DNA of 64,000 nucleotides from Escherichia coli (GTDB taxonomy: Bacteria; Pseudomonadota; Gammaproteobacteria; Enterobacterales; Enterobacteriaceae). Below are positions 40,001 to 49,000 of this stretch, in pieces; positions within the stretch are counted from its first letter, which is position 1; the number at the start of each line of letters is the position of its first letter. The position numbers are program-made. The stretch lies in NCBI RefSeq assembly GCF_030013595.1, contig NZ_CP122768.1. The stretch is one strand, 5' to 3'.

Positions 40001-43000
40001 CGTTGAGAGTGAATATCTCGAATACTTTGTTATCGACGGCCCGACGCCGAAAGCGGTACTTGATCGTTATACCCGTTTTACTGGTCGTCCGGCGCTGCCG
40101 CCCGCGTGGTCCTTCGGCCTGTGGCTAACCACTTCATTTACCACCAACTACGACGAAGCGACGGTAAACAGCTTTATCGATGGTATGGCGGAACGCAATC
40201 TGCCGCTGCATGTTTTCCACTTTGATTGTTTCTGGATGAAAGCCTTCCAGTGGTGCGATTTTGAGTGGGACCCGCTGACTTTCCCGGACCCGGAAGGGAT
40301 GATCCGCCGCCTGAAAGCGAAAGGGCTAAAAATCTGCGTCTGGATTAACCCCTATATCGGGCAAAAATCCCCTGTCTTTAAAGAGTTACAAGAGAAAGGC
40401 TATTTACTCAAACGCCCGGACGGTTCGTTATGGCAGTGGGATAAATGGCAGCCAGGTCTGGCGATTTATGACTTTACCAATCCGGATGCCTGCAAATGGT
40501 ACGCCGACAAACTGAAAGGTCTGGTCGCGATGGGCGTTGATTGCTTTAAGACCGACTTTGGCGAACGTATTCCAACCGATGTTCAATGGTTTGACGGTTC
40601 CGATCCGCAGAAAATGCATAACCATTATGCGTACATCTACAACGAACTGGTGTGGAACGTGCTCAAGGAAACCGTTGGTGAGGAAGAAGCCGTCTTGTTT
40701 GCTCGCTCGGCCTCCGTTGGTGCGCAGAAATTCCCGGTACACTGGGGTGGTGACTGTTACGCTAACTACGAATCAATGGCGGAAAGCCTGCGCGGTGGTT
40801 TGTCTATTGGCCTTTCAGGTTTTGGTTTCTGGAGCCACGATATCGGCGGCTTTGAGAATACCGCTCCGGCGCACGTTTACAAACGCTGGTGCGCGTTTGG
40901 TTTGCTCTCCAGCCATAGCCGTTTACATGGCAGCAAATCTTATCGTGTGCCGTGGGCCTACGATGATGAGTCCTGTGATGTGGTGCGCTTCTTCACGCAA
41001 CTGAAATGCCGCATGATGCCGTATCTGTATCGTGAAGCTGCTCGTGCGAACGCGCGGGGTACGCCGATGATGCGGGCCATGATGATGGAGTTTCCGGACG
41101 ATCCGGCTTGTGATTACCTTGACCGTCAATACATGTTAGGCGACAACGTGATGGTTGCTCCGGTGTTCACTGAAGCGGGCGATGTGCAGTTCTACTTGCC
41201 GGAAGGTCGCTGGACACATCTGTGGCACAACGATGAACTCGATGGTAGTCGCTGGCATAAACAGCAGCACAGCTTCCTGAGTCTGCCCGTTTATGTGCGT
41301 GATAACACCCTACTGGCGCTGGGCAACAACGAGCAACGTCCCGATTACGCGTGGCACGAAGGCACGGCATTCCAGCTCTTTAATCTACAAGACGGGCATG
41401 AAGCCATCTGTGAAGTGCCCGCTGCTGACGGTTCCGTTCTTTTCACCCTGAAAGCGGCGCGTACTGGCAACACGATTACTGTGACTGGTGCGGGCGAGGC
41501 GAAGAACTGGACACTGTGCTTGCGCAATATTGTGAAAGTAAATGGTCTGCAAGGTGGTTCGCAGGCTGAAAGTGAGCAGGGACTGGTGGTGACTCCTCAA
41601 GGGAATGCGCTGACAATTACGTTGTAATCTATTGAAGAATGCCGGATACGAATGGTTTTGTGTCGTATCCGGTAAATAATCTCACATCTGGTAATAAATA
41701 TTTCATCCATCGTATTTGCGAGCATGATCACGATTATTCATCACGAAAATGTGATCTGTGCCGAAAAATATCTATTAACCGCCCCGTTTTGTTTTATACA
41801 TGTCCGGACTACGGACAGATTTTAGTATTGTTGTGAAATTATTCTGCTTTATATTTACCCTCAGAGATGGCAACTGAAGCTCTTCCACATGGGGCTTCTT
41901 AATCTGTGATAAGGGTAAAAAATGCAAATGATTACCTCGCGACAAAACAGATTATTACGATTCCTTTTACCACGAAGGGAATATACGACTATTGTTACGA
42001 TTGCCGGCTATTTAAATGTTTCGGAAAAAACCATTCAACGTGATTTACGTTTACTTGAGCAATGGCTGGAACAATGGCGAATAACCGTTGAGAAGCGTGC
42101 TGGCGCAGGTGTGATGTTAGACTCGAAGAATATTACTGATTTGCTGCATCTTGATCATTTGTTGGGAGCAGAATGTGAAGAGATTGATGGTGTAATGAAT
42201 AATGCCAGGCGCGTTAAAATAGCGTCGCAGTTATTAAGTGAAACACCGAATGAAACGTCGATCAGTAAATTGTCAGAGCGCTATTTTATCAGTGGAGCCT
42301 CTATTGTTAATGACCTGAGAGTGATTGAGTCCTGGCTTGCGCCGTTGGGGTTATCATTGATCCGCAGCCCAAGTGGTACGCATATTGAAGGTAGTGAAGG
42401 GCAAGTCCGACAGGCAATGGCATTACTGATTAACGGCATTATTAACCATAATGAGCCGCAAGGTGTCGTGTATTCACGTCTGGATCCCGGAAGTTATAAA
42501 GCATTAGTCCATTATTTTGGAGAAGAAGAGGTGTTATTTGTCCAGTCATTGTTACTGGATATGGAAAATGAATTAAGTTGGTCTTTGGGAGAGCCTTATT
42601 ACGTTAACATTTTTACTCACATCCTTATTATGATGTATCGCAACACGCACGGGAATGCGTTATCCAGAGAAGAAGATCAAACCAGGCAATATGATGAAAA
42701 TATCTTTAATGTTGCCAGTCAGATGATTCATAAGATAGAACAACGAATTGCACATACATTGCCCGATGATGAAGTCTGGTTTATTTATCAATATATCATT
42801 TCATCAGGTGTGGCGATTGATGGACAAAAAGATGTTAGCATTATTTCACATATGCAGGCCAGCAATGAAGCGCGTCTGATTACCTGGCGTTTAATTACGG
42901 TATTCAGTGACATCGTGGACTGCGATTTTAGTGAAGACAGCGCATTATATGATGGCTTGTTGGTTCATATTAAGCCGCTGATTAACCGACTAAATTATCG

Positions 43001-46000: not shown

Positions 46001-49000
46001 TTTTCAGCGTCTGGCGGAGATTTTCCACTGCTCGAGCGTGCCTCTGGCATTACATGGTGGTAGCGGTACGCCGTTCGATCAGCTCCAGCTCTGTACGACT
46101 CTGGGGGTAGCAAAAATCAACGTGGGGGCGGCCATTTTTGAACGGGGGAAATCCGCGCTCCTGCATACCCTCTGTCACGATATATCCATTGAACTGGTGG
46201 ACGCGCTGAAAGCTATGGAACTGGCCTTCGAAGAAGCGATTACACCGTATTTACAGGCGAGCGGCTCTATCGGCAAAGCCTGATTCATTTTCTGTCATGG
46301 CCTTTATGCCAGTGCAATAACGCACCGGCAGGGCGGACTACACGCTGAAACTGGAGATTTAACATGTTAGTTTCGATGAAAGAATTACTGCAACCTACCC
46401 GCCAGCACGGCTTTGCCATTGGCGCATTTAATGTGGCGGATAACTGTTTCCTTCGCGCAGTCGTGGATGAAGCAGAAGCGACAAATACTCCGGCGATTAT
46501 TGCCATCCATCCCAGCGAACATGATTTTGTGGGCGATGCCTTTTTCGCTCACGTTCGCGAAATTACCCAGCGTAGTCCGGTCCCGTTTGTACTGCACCTC
46601 GATCATGGTGCCTCTGTAGAGCATGTTTTGCGTGCGATTCGCTGCGGATTTACCTCAGTAATGATCGACGGTTCGCTGCTGCCGTATGAAGAAAACGTGG
46701 CGCTGACCGCAGAAGTGGTTCGCCTCGCTCACGCGGTTGGAGTGTCGGTTGAGGGTGAACTGGGAACCATCGGACAAACAGGAACGTCGGTAGAAGGTGG
46801 TGTTTCACAAGTGACCTACACAGATCCGGCGCAGGCCGCCGATTTTATTGCTCGTACAGGTGCCGACACTCTGGCTGTGGCGATTGGTACAGCGCATGGC
46901 ATCTATCCAAAAGGGATGCAGCCGAAGCTGCAAATGGACATTTTGCGCGACATTGCCGGACGTATTGATATTCCGCTGGTGCTACACGGTGGTTCGGCAA
47001 ACCCGGACGCGGAGATTGCTGAATCAGTTACGCTCGGCGTCGGCAAAATCAATATCTCCAGCGATATGAAATACGCCTATTTCCAGAAAGTGCGTGAAAT
47101 TCTCGCTAAAGAGAGCTGGTGGGACCCGAACGTCATCTATCCGGATGCGATTAACGCGGCGCGGGAAGTCATTCGCCACAAAATGAAACTGTTCGGTTCG
47201 CTCGGTAAAGCATCACTGTACTAAGCCAGAAGGGCGGGGTGACCCGCCTTTTACGCAACAAGGAACGAGATATGCACTATCTGGGGTTGGATATTGGTGG
47301 GACCAAAATCGCCGCCGTCGTCATGGATGCGCATGGCTGGGAGATTCGCCGTTACCGCTGCCCGACGCAAAAGTCGACATATCAACAATTTGTCTCATGC
47401 GTTGTGGCGTTTATCGAGCAGATTAGGCGGGACGTTCAACGACCGATGCTGACAGGGATCGCCTTACCCGGCAGTATCTCGCCACTCACTGGCCTGATTA
47501 AAAACGCGAATATTCAGGTGATTAACGGTCATGCGTTACAGGCTGATTTGCAGCAATTGCTTGGGCAACCGGTGGTGATAGCCAATGATGGTAACTGTTT
47601 CGCGCTATCAGAAGCTTGCGACGGTGCCGGGCAAGATTATGACGTGGTATTTGGTATTACGCTTGGTACGGGCTGCGGCGGTGGCATTGCCATCAAGCAA
47701 CGACCGTTTATAGGGGCCTGGGGAAATGCTGCCGAATGCGGTCATATCACGTTGCCAGGCTATACGGAGCAGGAAGATGGTCCATCAGTCAGTTGCTATT
47801 GCGGCAAACACAACTGCGTGGAGTCGTTTGTTTCCGGCAGCGGTTTTAGTGAACGCTATCAACAGATGACTGGTAACTTGCTCACTCCTGCGGCGATTGT
47901 CACCCTGGCACAACGTGGTGATGCTTGTGCCATGCAGCAGGTGGCACGTTTTCGCCAACAGCTTGCCCGCACGCTGGCAACCATCGTTAACGTTGTTGAC
48001 CCTGGCGTGATTGTGATCGGCGGCGGGCTTTCGAATGTGGAACTGCTTATCACCGCTCTGAACGCAGAAGTTGCTCCACTGGTTTTCACCGATCAATTCA
48101 CCACTCCCATTGTAAAAGCACAGCACGGCGACAGTAGCGGAATGCGTGGCGCTGCCTGGCTTGCTATGCGCAACGGAGAAGCCAATGAAACGTTCACAAA
48201 TTAATTATGTTATTGATAAAGCACATGCCATTGCGCAGACCTTCCGCGTTTGTTTGCCAGAGTTCGCCTATTTTACGGTGGATGACTGGCTGCAGCTGGA
48301 ACGGGATAACTGGCAAGAAGTGGTCGACTTACAGCTCGGTTGGGATATCACCGATTTTGGTCGTGGTGATTTCAACCAAACGGGACTAACACTGCTAACG
48401 ATGCGCAACGGCGCGCTGGGGTCGGCGGCATATCCAAAACCGTATGCTGAGAAAATGTTGCAGATCCAACAAGATCAGCAGACTCCCTGGCATTTTCACA
48501 CCCACAAAATGGAAGATATCCTCAATCGGGGCGGTGGAGACTTATGCATGCAGTTGGCCTGGGCCAACGAAGCCAATCTCTGTGATGATCAACGAGTCAT
48601 TACCGTGAGTGTTGATGGTCAGCGGCGTACCATGAAACCTGGTGAAACGCTGGTGCTAAAGCCGGGGCAGGGCATTTGCCTGCCGCCGCGTCTGTATCAT
48701 CGCTTCTGGGCGGAAAAAGCGTTTGTTCTCGGCTGGGAAATTTCGATGGTAAATGATGACCAACATGATAACCATTTTCTTGAGCCGGGAGGACGTTTTC
48801 CGGCGATAGAAGAAGATGAACCGGTGAAATGGTTATTGTGTAGTGAGTATGCTGTTTTGCGGTAATAGCGGGGACGCTAACGTTGATATCCGTTAGCGCC
48901 CGCGTATTTACTGCACCGGCTCCGTCGATGTAACTTCGCCACTGGAAACGACGCCTGCATTCATGGTTTGAGTCACTTGCTGCTTTGTGGCGTTCACGGC

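Follow-up and report, generated by a model that had tools for sequence, protein, structure and literature searches.

The locus occupies positions 41922-48865 on the plus strand of a 64,000-nucleotide stretch of Escherichia coli DNA (contig NZ_CP122768.1), which is referred to here as the window. It holds eight intact, tightly packed and co-directional open reading frames. ORF prediction and Pfam searches agree with the gene content given in an earlier sequence-only reading: a regulator, the EIIA, EIIB and EIIC components of a PTS, two aldolases, a ROK kinase and a cupin (Table 1). The intergenic gaps measure, in order, 26, 17, 24, 11, 80 and 47 bp; the start of the cupin gene then overlaps the kinase gene by 20 bp. 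All eight reading frames are free of internal stops. For the kinase and the cupin the RefSeq ATG starts were adopted; the longest mechanical ORFs begin with GTG at 47239 and 48146. The GC content is low in the regulator-EIIA-EIIB part (41-44%) and about 52% in the remainder. A scan for terminator-like sites inside the operon gave 5 against 8.1 expected, that is, no excess, and the strong hairpin at the right end is probably a bidirectional terminator.

Table 1. Genes and predicted sites at the locus; positions refer to the window.
Feature	Position	Strand	Length (aa)	Evidence
yicI (GH31 alpha-xylosidase), left flank outside the operon	39309-41627	+		Pfam Glyco_hydro_31; RefSeq annotation of homologous loci
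Stable hairpin GCCGGATACG...CGTATCCGG, just 3' of the yicI stop	41640-41674	+		-18.3 kcal/mol, z = -4.2
CRP-like site TGCGA-N6-TCACG (8/10 vs TGTGA-N6-TCACA), putative function	41717-41732	+		Conserved across genera
TGTGA half-site in conserved block AAAATGTGATCTG, putative function	41750-41754	+		33 bp downstream of the CRP-like site centre
Palindrome TGTCCG-N5-CGGACA, candidate operator for the frz PRD activator	41801-41817	+		Adjoins putative -35
Putative promoter, conserved block TTTAGTATTGT overlapping a -35-like element	41821-41855	+		Conservation and sequence
frz regulator	41922-43475	+	517	Pfam HTH_11, Mga, two PRD and EIIB-like (PRD 1.9e-30)
PTS EIIA, fructose/mannitol type	43502-43972	+	156	Pfam PTS_EIIA_2 1e-34; TIGR00848 above cutoff
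PTS EIIB, fructose type	43990-44304	+	104	Pfam PTS_IIB 6e-19; TIGR00829 above cutoff
PTS EIIC, fructose family	44329-45420	+	363	Pfam PTS_EIIC 4.5e-12; TIGR01427 311 bits, above cutoff
Class II aldolase paralogue 1	45432-46283	+	283	Pfam F_bP_aldolase 2e-75; PDB matches
Class II ketose-bisphosphate aldolase paralogue 2	46364-47224	+	286	Pfam F_bP_aldolase 8e-91; PRK08185
ROK-family sugar kinase, Mak/NagK-like	47272-48204	+	310	Pfam ROK 3e-74; PDB NagK matches
Cupin isomerase, D-lyxose/D-mannose isomerase family	48185-48865	+	226	Pfam Lyx_isomer 1.6e-86, full length
Strong hairpin, convergent interval between the cupin gene and yicH	48868-48905			-24.5 kcal/mol, z = -4.1
yicH (AsmA family), right flank outside the operon	48908-50617	-		Pfam AsmA; RefSeq annotation of homologous loci

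The locus is the chromosomal carbohydrate-catabolic operon frz, whose presence or absence varies among E. coli strains. The ‘frz operon’ has been mapped to positions 3991960-3999186, in the yicH/yicI interval, of BEN2908, the avian ExPEC reference strain in which frz was defined, by the 2026 genome paper on that strain (PMC12928451), which cites Rouquet et al. 2009 (J Bacteriol 191:4427) for it. Reading of the annotation showed eight genes in this interval, in the same order as in the window. Alignment with the window gave 98.0% DNA identity over 12 kb, and per-gene comparison showed proteins of equal length that are 97.4-100% identical (regulator 98.65%, EIIC 100%). The published primers of a frz multiplex PCR (PMC6238794) match the window with 0 mismatches at 42327-42346 (+) and 43150-43169 (-), and the predicted amplicon (42327-43169, inside the regulator gene) is 843 bp long, exactly as published. 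The resemblance to frz, proposed in the sequence-only reading from gene content, was thus borne out by DNA, proteins and primers. Site, genes, order, gene lengths and PCR marker are the same in both strains, and the differences are allelic only. Synonymous divergence from BEN2908 is patchy (~0.18 in EIIA and EIIB, ~0.01 from EIIC through the kinase), indicating recombination within the species. A review describes frz as transcribed as a single operon. The host strain of the window differs from BEN2908. As a separate observation, the selC island of the window differs from that of an otherwise near-identical pig strain.

Sequences 5' of the regulator gene were aligned for 14 loci from 10 genera. 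The CRP-like site, the TGTGA half-site and the promoter block are conserved across these genera. The arms of the palindrome are kept in nearly all of the loci, with a variable spacer, and the palindrome was also flagged by a scan. Its RNA fold is weak (z = -1.7), and a protein-binding site is therefore favoured over a terminator. The putative promoter would combine a -35-like TTGTTG (41828-41833), a 16-bp spacer and a -10-like TATATT (41850-41855), and lies below the threshold of the consensus promoter scan. Both promoter and operator are candidate assignments based on conservation.

The regulator consists of HTH_11 and Mga-type HTH domains, PRD1, PRD2 and an EIIB(Gat)-like domain with Cys427; Pfam detected neither a CAT RNA-binding domain nor an EIIA-like domain. 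The RefSeq label ‘antiterminator’ was rejected, as the domains are those of a DNA-binding PRD activator. The same series of HTH plus Mga-like region, two PRDs and EIIB(Gat)-like domain with a conserved Cys is found in the Bacillus activators MtlR, ManR and LicR. Unlike these, the 517-aa enterobacterial protein lacks the C-terminal EIIA-like domain, has Tyr291 at one of the four canonical PRD histidine positions, and is encoded by the first gene of the operon presumably under its control. Homologous regulators of 654-665 aa occur in Paenibacillus, Anaerostipes, a Lachnospiraceae MAG and Sebaldella. Alignments with AtxA/AcpB and LicT showed that His233, His349 and His409 are conserved and that Tyr291 occupies the fourth position. 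The phosphorylatable PTS residues are present: these three histidines and Cys427 of the regulator, His67 of EIIA (motif IAIPHGK) and Cys9 of EIIB (AACTAGIAHT). EIIC is the most conserved product of the operon, with 95-97% amino acid identity in Citrobacter, Kosakonia and Klebsiella among the matches listed.

Aldolase 2 belongs to the NCBIfam PRK08185 subfamily (526 bits, above cutoff), retains every catalytic motif including the loop Glu in S(V/I)EGG, and matches FBP and tagatose-bisphosphate aldolases in the PDB. Aldolase 1 keeps the LDHG, GTAHG and LHGGSG motifs, but in the paralogue alignment it has no counterpart of the conserved mobile-loop Glu. It is above the cutoff of no NCBIfam model and evolves faster than aldolase 2 (dN). 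The ROK kinase carries the zinc motif CGH...CxCG..C, and its best NCBIfam match is the fructokinase PRK09557 (317 bits, below the cutoff of 443). The cupin can be aligned from end to end with Z5688, the structurally solved D-lyxose isomerase of E. coli O157:H7 (PDB 3KMH, 3MPB; E = 7e-66 to 3KMH), with the metal-binding and catalytic motifs (H-x-H...E and H) conserved, and scores 273 bits against an equivalog cutoff of 350. As both proteins are below their equivalog cutoffs, the sugars on which they act may not be exactly those of the family names. Z5688, which acts on D-lyxose and D-mannose, is a paralogue of the frz cupin and not the same gene, since identity is partial and the yicI-yicH site of O157:H7 is empty.

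The regulator, EIIABC and the aldolase pair form a six-gene core that reaches Pantoea, Pectobacterium, Listeria and clostridia, with the kinase and the cupin as recurrent additions: ROK and PfkB in Anaerostipes, ROK in a Lachnospiraceae MAG, and Lyx_isomer-type cupins in Sebaldella and Metabacillus. The ROK kinase is an accessory gene, missing from many Citrobacter loci in the locus matrix. The Listeria counterpart is the fructose-like PTS/aldolase cluster lmo2133-lmo2138 of Listeria monocytogenes, already named a frz homologue in the literature. In Listeria marthii, the regulator, EIIA, EIIB, EIIC and both aldolase paralogues follow the frz order with 29-62% protein identity. The Listeria cluster differs from frz in its genomic site and in having neither ROK kinase nor cupin.

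We propose a catabolic route from the domain families only, and a mechanism modelled on what is established for PTS systems and PRD regulators. Phosphate would pass from PEP via EI, HPr, EIIA and EIIB to a fructose-like sugar entering through EIIC, and the sugar phosphate would be converted to a ketose bisphosphate. As E. coli frz encodes no bisphosphate-forming kinase, this step would depend on a host kinase; in Anaerostipes a PfkB kinase adjoins the operon. The paired class II aldolases would then yield triose phosphates, and in a side branch the cupin and the ROK kinase may convert a free mannose- or lyxose-type aldose to a ketose and further to a ketose phosphate. The conserved palindrome next to the -35 is probably the target of the PRD activator encoded by the first gene. 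If this activator behaves like MtlR and ManR, HPr would switch it on and the idle transporter would keep it off via Cys427, and the conserved CRP-like sites would add catabolite control.

A PTS that feeds a class II aldolase is also found in the tagatose-bisphosphate loci gat, aga and kba for galactitol and N-acetylgalactosamine, and the frz aldolases have AgaY and KbaY among their best structural matches in the PDB. In these pathways, GatZ or KbaZ is a divergent partner subunit of the class II aldolase, and the frz aldolase likewise has a second, divergent partner, resembling the GatYZ/KbaYZ arrangement. However, the partner in frz is not of the GatZ/KbaZ family but a true paralogue within PF01116, with its zinc ligands retained, the frz PTS is of the fructose family instead of the galactitol or mannose family, and frz encodes no dedicated phosphofructokinase-type kinase.

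Alternatively, the PTS product could be a ketose 1-phosphate that is cut to DHAP and a free aldose, which would pass to the cupin and the ROK kinase with no bisphosphate being formed. The missing 1-phosphofructokinase-type kinase of the enterobacterial operon fits such a route, as does the YdjI aldolase (6OFU) among the PDB relatives of both frz aldolases; YdjI reportedly cleaves its monophosphate substrate directly (Huddleston et al. 2019). That Lyx_isomer cupin and ROK, which act on free sugars, recur in three phyla next to the PTS-aldolase core would also make sense if a free aldose were a pathway intermediate. However, the known substrates of the cupin family are pentose and hexose aldoses, so the imported sugar would need an unusual eight or nine carbons. 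In addition, the core works without cupin and kinase in Pantoea, Pectobacterium and Listeria, and the adjacent PfkB of Anaerostipes fits a bisphosphate. We consider this route improbable and prefer the ketose-bisphosphate pathway.

The phenotypes described for frz concern fitness when oxygen is restricted, during late stationary phase, in serum and in the gut, together with a type 1 fimbrial switch biased to ON. They raise the question of whether the PTS and its PRD regulator chiefly signal to other regulons such as the fim switch, with carbon supply being secondary. Indeed, the orientation of the fim promoter and the late-stationary and low-oxygen fitness in LB are effects of a regulatory or stress type, the regulator has several phosphorylatable sites, and the accessible literature names no substrate. 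Against a mainly sensory role, all four metabolic enzymes are intact and under purifying selection, with dN far below dS, and the PTS-aldolase core is conserved across phyla, as is typical of a working catabolic pathway. The metabolic enzymes and the activator are also said, in the abstract of the 2009 study, to have both contributed to the phenotypes. A chiefly sensory function thus appears unlikely to us, and sugar catabolism is retained as the main role.

Within E. coli, the full cluster was found in 1601 of 5426 complete genomes (29.5%), and an empty yicI-yicH site in 3818. Carriage of frz does not make the strain an ExPEC. In a K-12 MG1655 derivative, yicI and yicH lie only 52 bp apart and frz is missing, in line with the adjacency stated in the sequence-only reading. 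BLAST of the window against K-12 stops at 41650 and restarts at 48907. The two comparisons suggested at the outset gave very high similarity to frz and no cluster in K-12. The difference from K-12 is bounded on the left by the hairpin behind yicI (junction alignment), whose homologue K-12 retains with one base pair compensated, and on the right by the hairpin before yicH. Five empty sites were read, from K-12, O157 and three other genomes spanning 93-100% identity, and all share one junction.

Frz had been described as inserted, which holds as a difference from K-12. As a history, it would make frz a foreign sugar operon acquired recently and horizontally at yicI/yicH in pathogenic lineages. 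Frz is indeed missing from K-12 and 70% of the complete genomes, part of it is low in GC, the literature regards it as an ExPEC-associated genomic region, and one paper suggests that the Listeria homologue came from Enterobacteriaceae. On the other hand, ORFs and Pfam showed no integrase, IS, transposase or tRNA at the edges, no flanking or boundary repeats were found there, and tRNA-Sec, 4 kb upstream, is the sole RNA family in the vicinity. The order yicJ-yicI-frz-yicH also occurs in Citrobacter, Superficieibacter and Phytobacter, and its yicJI side in Klebsiella and Mangrovibacter and its yicH side in Kosakonia, among the matches listed. In comparison with Citrobacter, the frz genes have dS values that are 0.9-2.6 or saturated, as high as those of the flanks (1.4-1.7), which rules out each sampled genus as a recent donor; in all frz genes, dN is far lower than dS. 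The regulator-EIIA-EIIB segment is lower in GC than its neighbours in other genera too, and the single empty-site junction fits one deletion. Recent insertion is therefore very improbable.

Since the same site is occupied in other genera and the divergence equals that of the flanks, ancestral presence followed by loss fits better. Most likely, frz was already at its present site in an enterobacterial ancestor and was later lost in the K-12/O157-type lineage, probably by one deletion. This model requires further losses in lineages that did not appear among the best 80 of 186 hits of the scan, such as representative Salmonella and other Escherichia species.

Taken as a whole, the evidence is best explained, with high confidence, by the known frz operon, most likely an old locus for PTS sugar catabolism that was lost in K-12-like strains. 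Frz is an already described system of E. coli, found here intact and in its usual position between yicI and yicH.

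The frz operon is said to consist of a PRD activator, EIIA, EIIB, EIIC, two class II aldolases, a ROK kinase and a cupin. The sequence-only reading had placed eight co-directional genes of this kind between yicI and yicH, and the ORFs were all found at those positions on the plus strand, with strong matches to the respective families. The operon lies downstream of yicJI and is flanked by yicI (GH31) on one side and yicH (AsmA family) on the other. Its intergenic spacers measure 11-80 bp, and the kinase and cupin genes overlap by 20 nt. For these two genes, the starts are the ATG codons chosen by RefSeq in identical loci; mechanically called ORFs run to upstream GTG codons.

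Genes of the frz operon and conserved elements of its upstream region
Feature	Position	Strand	Characteristics
Regulator	41922-43475	+	HTH_11, Mga HTH, two PRDs, EIIB-like domain
EIIA	43502-43972	+	Fructose-family PTS, NCBIfam above cutoff
EIIB	43990-44304	+	Fructose-family PTS, NCBIfam above cutoff
EIIC	44329-45420	+	Fructose-family PTS, NCBIfam above cutoff
Aldolase 1	45432-46283	+	PF01116, class II aldolase
Aldolase 2	46364-47224	+	PF01116, class II aldolase
ROK kinase	47272-48204	+	PF00480
Cupin	48185-48865	+	Lyx_isomer, full length
CRP-like site	41717-41732		8/10 consensus positions; conserved in alignment
TGTGA half-site	41750-41754		Three helical turns downstream of CRP-like site; conserved
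Palindrome TGTCCG-N5-CGGACA	41801-41817		Conserved
Invariant block adjoining palindrome			Overlaps -35-like hexamer; conserved
-10-like TATATT	41850-41855		Conserved
Ribosome-binding region			Conserved

The adjacency of yicI and yicH in K-12, stated in the sequence-only reading, proved correct: the two genes are 52 bp apart in an MG1655 derivative and the cluster is missing there. Alignment of the window to K-12 stops at 41650 and restarts at 48907. As a reference for frz, we used the avian ExPEC strain BEN2908, whose genome paper reports the 'frz operon' at 3991960..3999186 in region GR27, bounded by yicH and yicI (PMC12928451). The BEN2908 locus contains eight genes identical in kind and order to those of the window, with 98.0% DNA identity across 12 kb and frz proteins of equal lengths that are 97.4-100% identical. 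No internal stops were present in the eight frz genes of the window. Two primers for frz, taken from a paper on virulence typing in poultry with a published product of 843 bp (PMC6238794), both match the regulator gene of the window with zero mismatches, giving a computed amplicon of 843 bp. The identity to BEN2908 and the primer matches thus confirm by sequence that the cluster is frz, as had been proposed from its gene content. We also looked for the same cluster at the K-12 site and for low similarity to frz, and found neither. Judged on these comparisons, the feature is an intact, already known frz operon. Phenotypes reported for frz, according to citing papers, are stress fitness, adhesion and invasion, and a bias of the type 1 fimbrial switch.

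The distribution of frz was surveyed in 5426 complete E. coli genomes. The whole cluster was present at 98% identity or more in 1601 of these (29.5%), and yicI and yicH were adjacent in 3818 (70.4%). Together these make 5419 genomes, so the yicI-yicH site is essentially two-state. Five empty sites with 93-100% identity to K-12 were read, including that of O157:H7, and had a single junction in common. It consists of a hairpin, GCCGGGTACG-N7-CGTACCCGGC, followed by 10 bp and then the yicH stop. In the occupied allele, a homologous hairpin with a compensated base pair is retained after yicI (fold z = -4.2), and a second strong hairpin is found between the cupin gene and yicH (fold z = -4.1).

The cluster had been described as inserted between yicI and yicH, and this polarity is probably wrong. 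Recent horizontal insertion is disfavoured, as ORF, Pfam and Rfam searches revealed no integrase, transposase or tRNA within 41628-48907, and a search for direct or inverted repeats on either side of the cluster gave nothing beyond short chance-level matches. The selC integrase at 36042-37232 is part of a separate upstream island and not of frz. Insertion is further opposed by the occupation of the same site in other genera. The EIIC protein was searched against one genome per species, and a tblastn matrix was then built with the eight proteins and the flanks. Many Citrobacter species, Superficieibacter and Phytobacter ursingii have the order yicJ-yicI-[operon]-yicH. Klebsiella michiganensis, K. 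grimontii and Mangrovibacter share the yicJI side, and Kosakonia the yicH side. Between the window and Citrobacter, dS is 0.9-2.6 or saturated for the frz genes and 1.4-1.7 for yicJ, yicI and yicH. These comparable values imply that the operon is as old at the site as its neighbours, and they speak against a recent transfer from any genus sampled. The genes for the regulator, EIIA and EIIB have a low GC content (GC 41-44%, GC3 38-42%; GC3 of the other five operon genes 51-58%). The rest of the operon is typical in composition. The same three genes form the low-GC part in other genera too, which suggests that the low GC belongs to the genes themselves rather than to a recent import. As the simplest reading, the operon was ancestrally present, and a single deletion was probably passed on to K-12-like lineages. 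The best 80 of the 186 EIIC matches, which were those listed, included no Salmonella and, of other Escherichia species, only one Escherichia genome; with these missing among the matches listed, further losses must be assumed.

Several other features of the locus and the surrounding DNA were observed. Between the window and BEN2908, dS is 0.07 for the regulator, 0.18 for EIIA and EIIB, 0.01-0.02 from EIIC to the kinase, 0.04 for the cupin and 0.10-0.12 for the flanks. This patchiness inside frz points to a recombination patch swapped between E. coli lineages. In K. michiganensis (L023) and K. grimontii (L024), ~6 kb of extra sequence separates the cupin gene from yicH. The closest database strain has a yicI (L004 17710-20028) that its annotation calls a pseudogene, with a stop inside the gene; the window has an intact yicI ORF of 772 codons (39309-41627). 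A large island (1545-37624) is located at the tRNA-Sec gene selC (37534-37624, minus strand). It contains a P4-type tyrosine integrase (36042-37232, minus strand), followed by tia-like and phosphoethanolamine transferase-like genes, and a type I restriction-modification system, hsdM, hsdS and hsdR (1545-8046, minus strand). The pig strain HCP5S3_I2, otherwise 99.95% identical, carries a different island at this tRNA, with ETT2 eip genes and IatC. The segment 8824-31376 is a Tn21-family multidrug-resistance region bounded by IS1 copies (8826-9596 and 30609-31376). From a match in the chicken strain VTB97379v covering 98% of it, its content would comprise a mer operon, tni genes, IS1326, sul1, qacEdelta1, aadA1, dfrA1, intI1, IS26, a TnAs3-type transposase and catA1. 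Seventy percent of this region matches E. coli 042 at 99.9%, where the copy lies elsewhere in the chromosome, near pst.

The tblastn matrix showed that a six-gene core (regulator-EIIA-EIIB-EIIC-aldolase 1-aldolase 2) keeps this order in many further taxa. It was found in Pantoea, Erwinia, Pectobacterium and Brenneria, with EIIC ~85% identical, and likewise in Listeria marthii, Sebaldella and several Bacillota. The Listeria lmo2133-2138 cluster is already regarded as a frz homologue in the literature. In Pantoea, the six core genes stand alone amid housekeeping genes such as parC, and in two Paenibacillus loci a single aldolase gene was detected. The ROK kinase and the cupin are both missing outside Enterobacteriaceae in the loci surveyed, with exceptions. 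In Anaerostipes, a Lachnospiraceae MAG, Brenneria and Mangrovibacter, a ROK gene comes after the aldolase genes, with a further PfkB-family kinase in Anaerostipes; in Sebaldella and Metabacillus, the cluster is succeeded by a small cupin of the Lyx_isomer type. That an isomerase for free sugars and a kinase of the hexokinase type were recruited repeatedly suggests that they are genuinely linked in function to the core. The ROK gene is missing in many Citrobacter loci (L006, L007, L010, L012, L013, L018, L019, L078), in which the cupin gene comes directly after aldolase 2, and is retained in others (L011, L017). The kinase is thus dispensable in at least some hosts.

EIIA, EIIB and EIIC scored above the cutoffs of TIGR00848, TIGR00829 and TIGR01427, respectively, and the phosphorylation sites are present in EIIA (IAIPHGK motif with His67) and EIIB (AACTAGIAHT motif with Cys9). 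By these family matches, the three separate proteins are components of a fructose-family PTS. Both aldolases retain the catalytic Asp-His and two further zinc histidines. The mobile-loop Glu is found only in aldolase 2 (SVEGG), which has every motif of a class II ketose-bisphosphate aldolase and scored above the PRK08185 cutoff. In aldolase 1, this Glu is absent from all the aligned lineages (the window and comparison loci L011, L023, L028, L045, L049, L064, L072, L080, L081 and L084, the last from Listeria marthii); this paralogue scored below all NCBIfam cutoffs and evolves at about twice the rate of aldolase 2. In most of the loci scanned, it is paired with its canonical counterpart. Aldolase 1 could be an obligate partner subunit or a 4-epimerase-like enzyme instead of a conventional aldolase, or it could be an atypical aldolase. 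The ROK kinase is nearest to Mak and NagK and scored below their cutoffs. The cupin gave a full-length Pfam match and aligned over its whole length to the solved O157:H7 D-lyxose isomerase 3KMH, with the metal site conserved; its NCBIfam equivalog score was 273 against a cutoff of 350. The O157:H7 enzyme acts on D-lyxose and D-mannose. Since O157:H7 has the empty site, the frz cupin is a paralogue of this isomerase.

The regulator aligned with AtxA and AcpB at its N-terminus and with the PRDs of LicT in its centre. Of the four canonical PRD histidine positions, three hold a histidine (His233, His349 and His409) and the fourth holds Tyr291; the C-terminal EIIB-like domain contains Cys427 in the motif LLVCSTGIGTS. 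Pfam assigned HTH_11 and Mga to the N-terminus and found no CAT RNA-binding domain. The RefSeq product name, 'BglG family transcription antiterminator', is probably wrong on the mode of action, given the lack of a CAT domain and the presence of the HTH and Mga regions. As a candidate, a BglG/SacY-type antiterminator was rejected: there is neither a CAT domain nor an RNA element, and the hairpin at the palindrome is weak (z = -1.7). An Rfam scan of 37400-49200 returned tRNA-Sec only, and neither a riboswitch nor an element resembling an RNA antiterminator (RAT). By domain composition, the regulator fits the MtlR/ManR/LicR class of DNA-binding PRD activators in a shortened form. It shares with these an HTH and Mga-like region and two PRDs with phosphorylatable histidines. 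Of the two C-terminal domains of the class, EIIB(Gat)-like and EIIA-like, it has an EIIB-like one and no EIIA-like one, and it ends at residue 517. Homologues in Paenibacillus, Anaerostipes, the Lachnospiraceae MAG and Sebaldella are ~140 residues longer.

When ~300 bp of the DNA preceding the regulator gene were aligned for 14 loci of 10 genera, the upstream elements listed in the table proved conserved. They point to a putative catabolite-controlled promoter with a candidate operator for the operon's own activator. A consensus promoter scan gave a number of sites below chance expectation and no site between yicI and the regulator gene, and the proposed promoter therefore rests on the cross-genus conservation.

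The basis for a mechanism consists of the parts list, the integrity of the genes, and the conservation of both the phosphorylation residues and the upstream motifs. Following established PTS and PRD-regulator biology, a PEP-driven phosphorelay would pass from EI through HPr, EIIA and EIIB to a fructose-like sugar entering via EIIC. The resulting sugar phosphate would be converted to a ketose bisphosphate, in E. coli by a host kinase, and the aldolase pair would yield triose phosphates from it. In a side branch, the cupin and the ROK kinase may convert a free mannose- or lyxose-type aldose to a ketose phosphate. An alternative to this pathway would be a ketose-1-phosphate route, in which the cupin and kinase recycle a free aldose product. 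The activator would turn the operon on, stimulated via HPr and held off by the idle transporter; alternatively, the PTS and the regulator might be mainly sensory. For the proposed catabolic pathway, a literature search gave no named substrate for frz or its Listeria homologue. The combination of a fructose-family PTS, an aldolase pair with one member lacking the loop Glu, and a recurring isomerase and ROK kinase leads us to suggest, very tentatively and as a rather unlikely case, that the core may handle a sugar whose use as a nutrient by bacteria has yet to be recognised.

As frz already serves as a typing marker for avian and extraintestinal pathogenic E. coli, its presence here adds little. 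The six-gene core across phyla, the aldolase pair with its atypical member, the cupin and ROK additions and the conserved promoter architecture narrow the experiments needed to find the sugar. If the proposed route is true, the identity of the substrate would explain the retention of frz in ~30% of E. coli and its tie to fitness in the host. If the operon was ancestral at this site, the link between frz and ExPEC would largely reflect lineages that kept frz, and not the acquisition of a virulence island.
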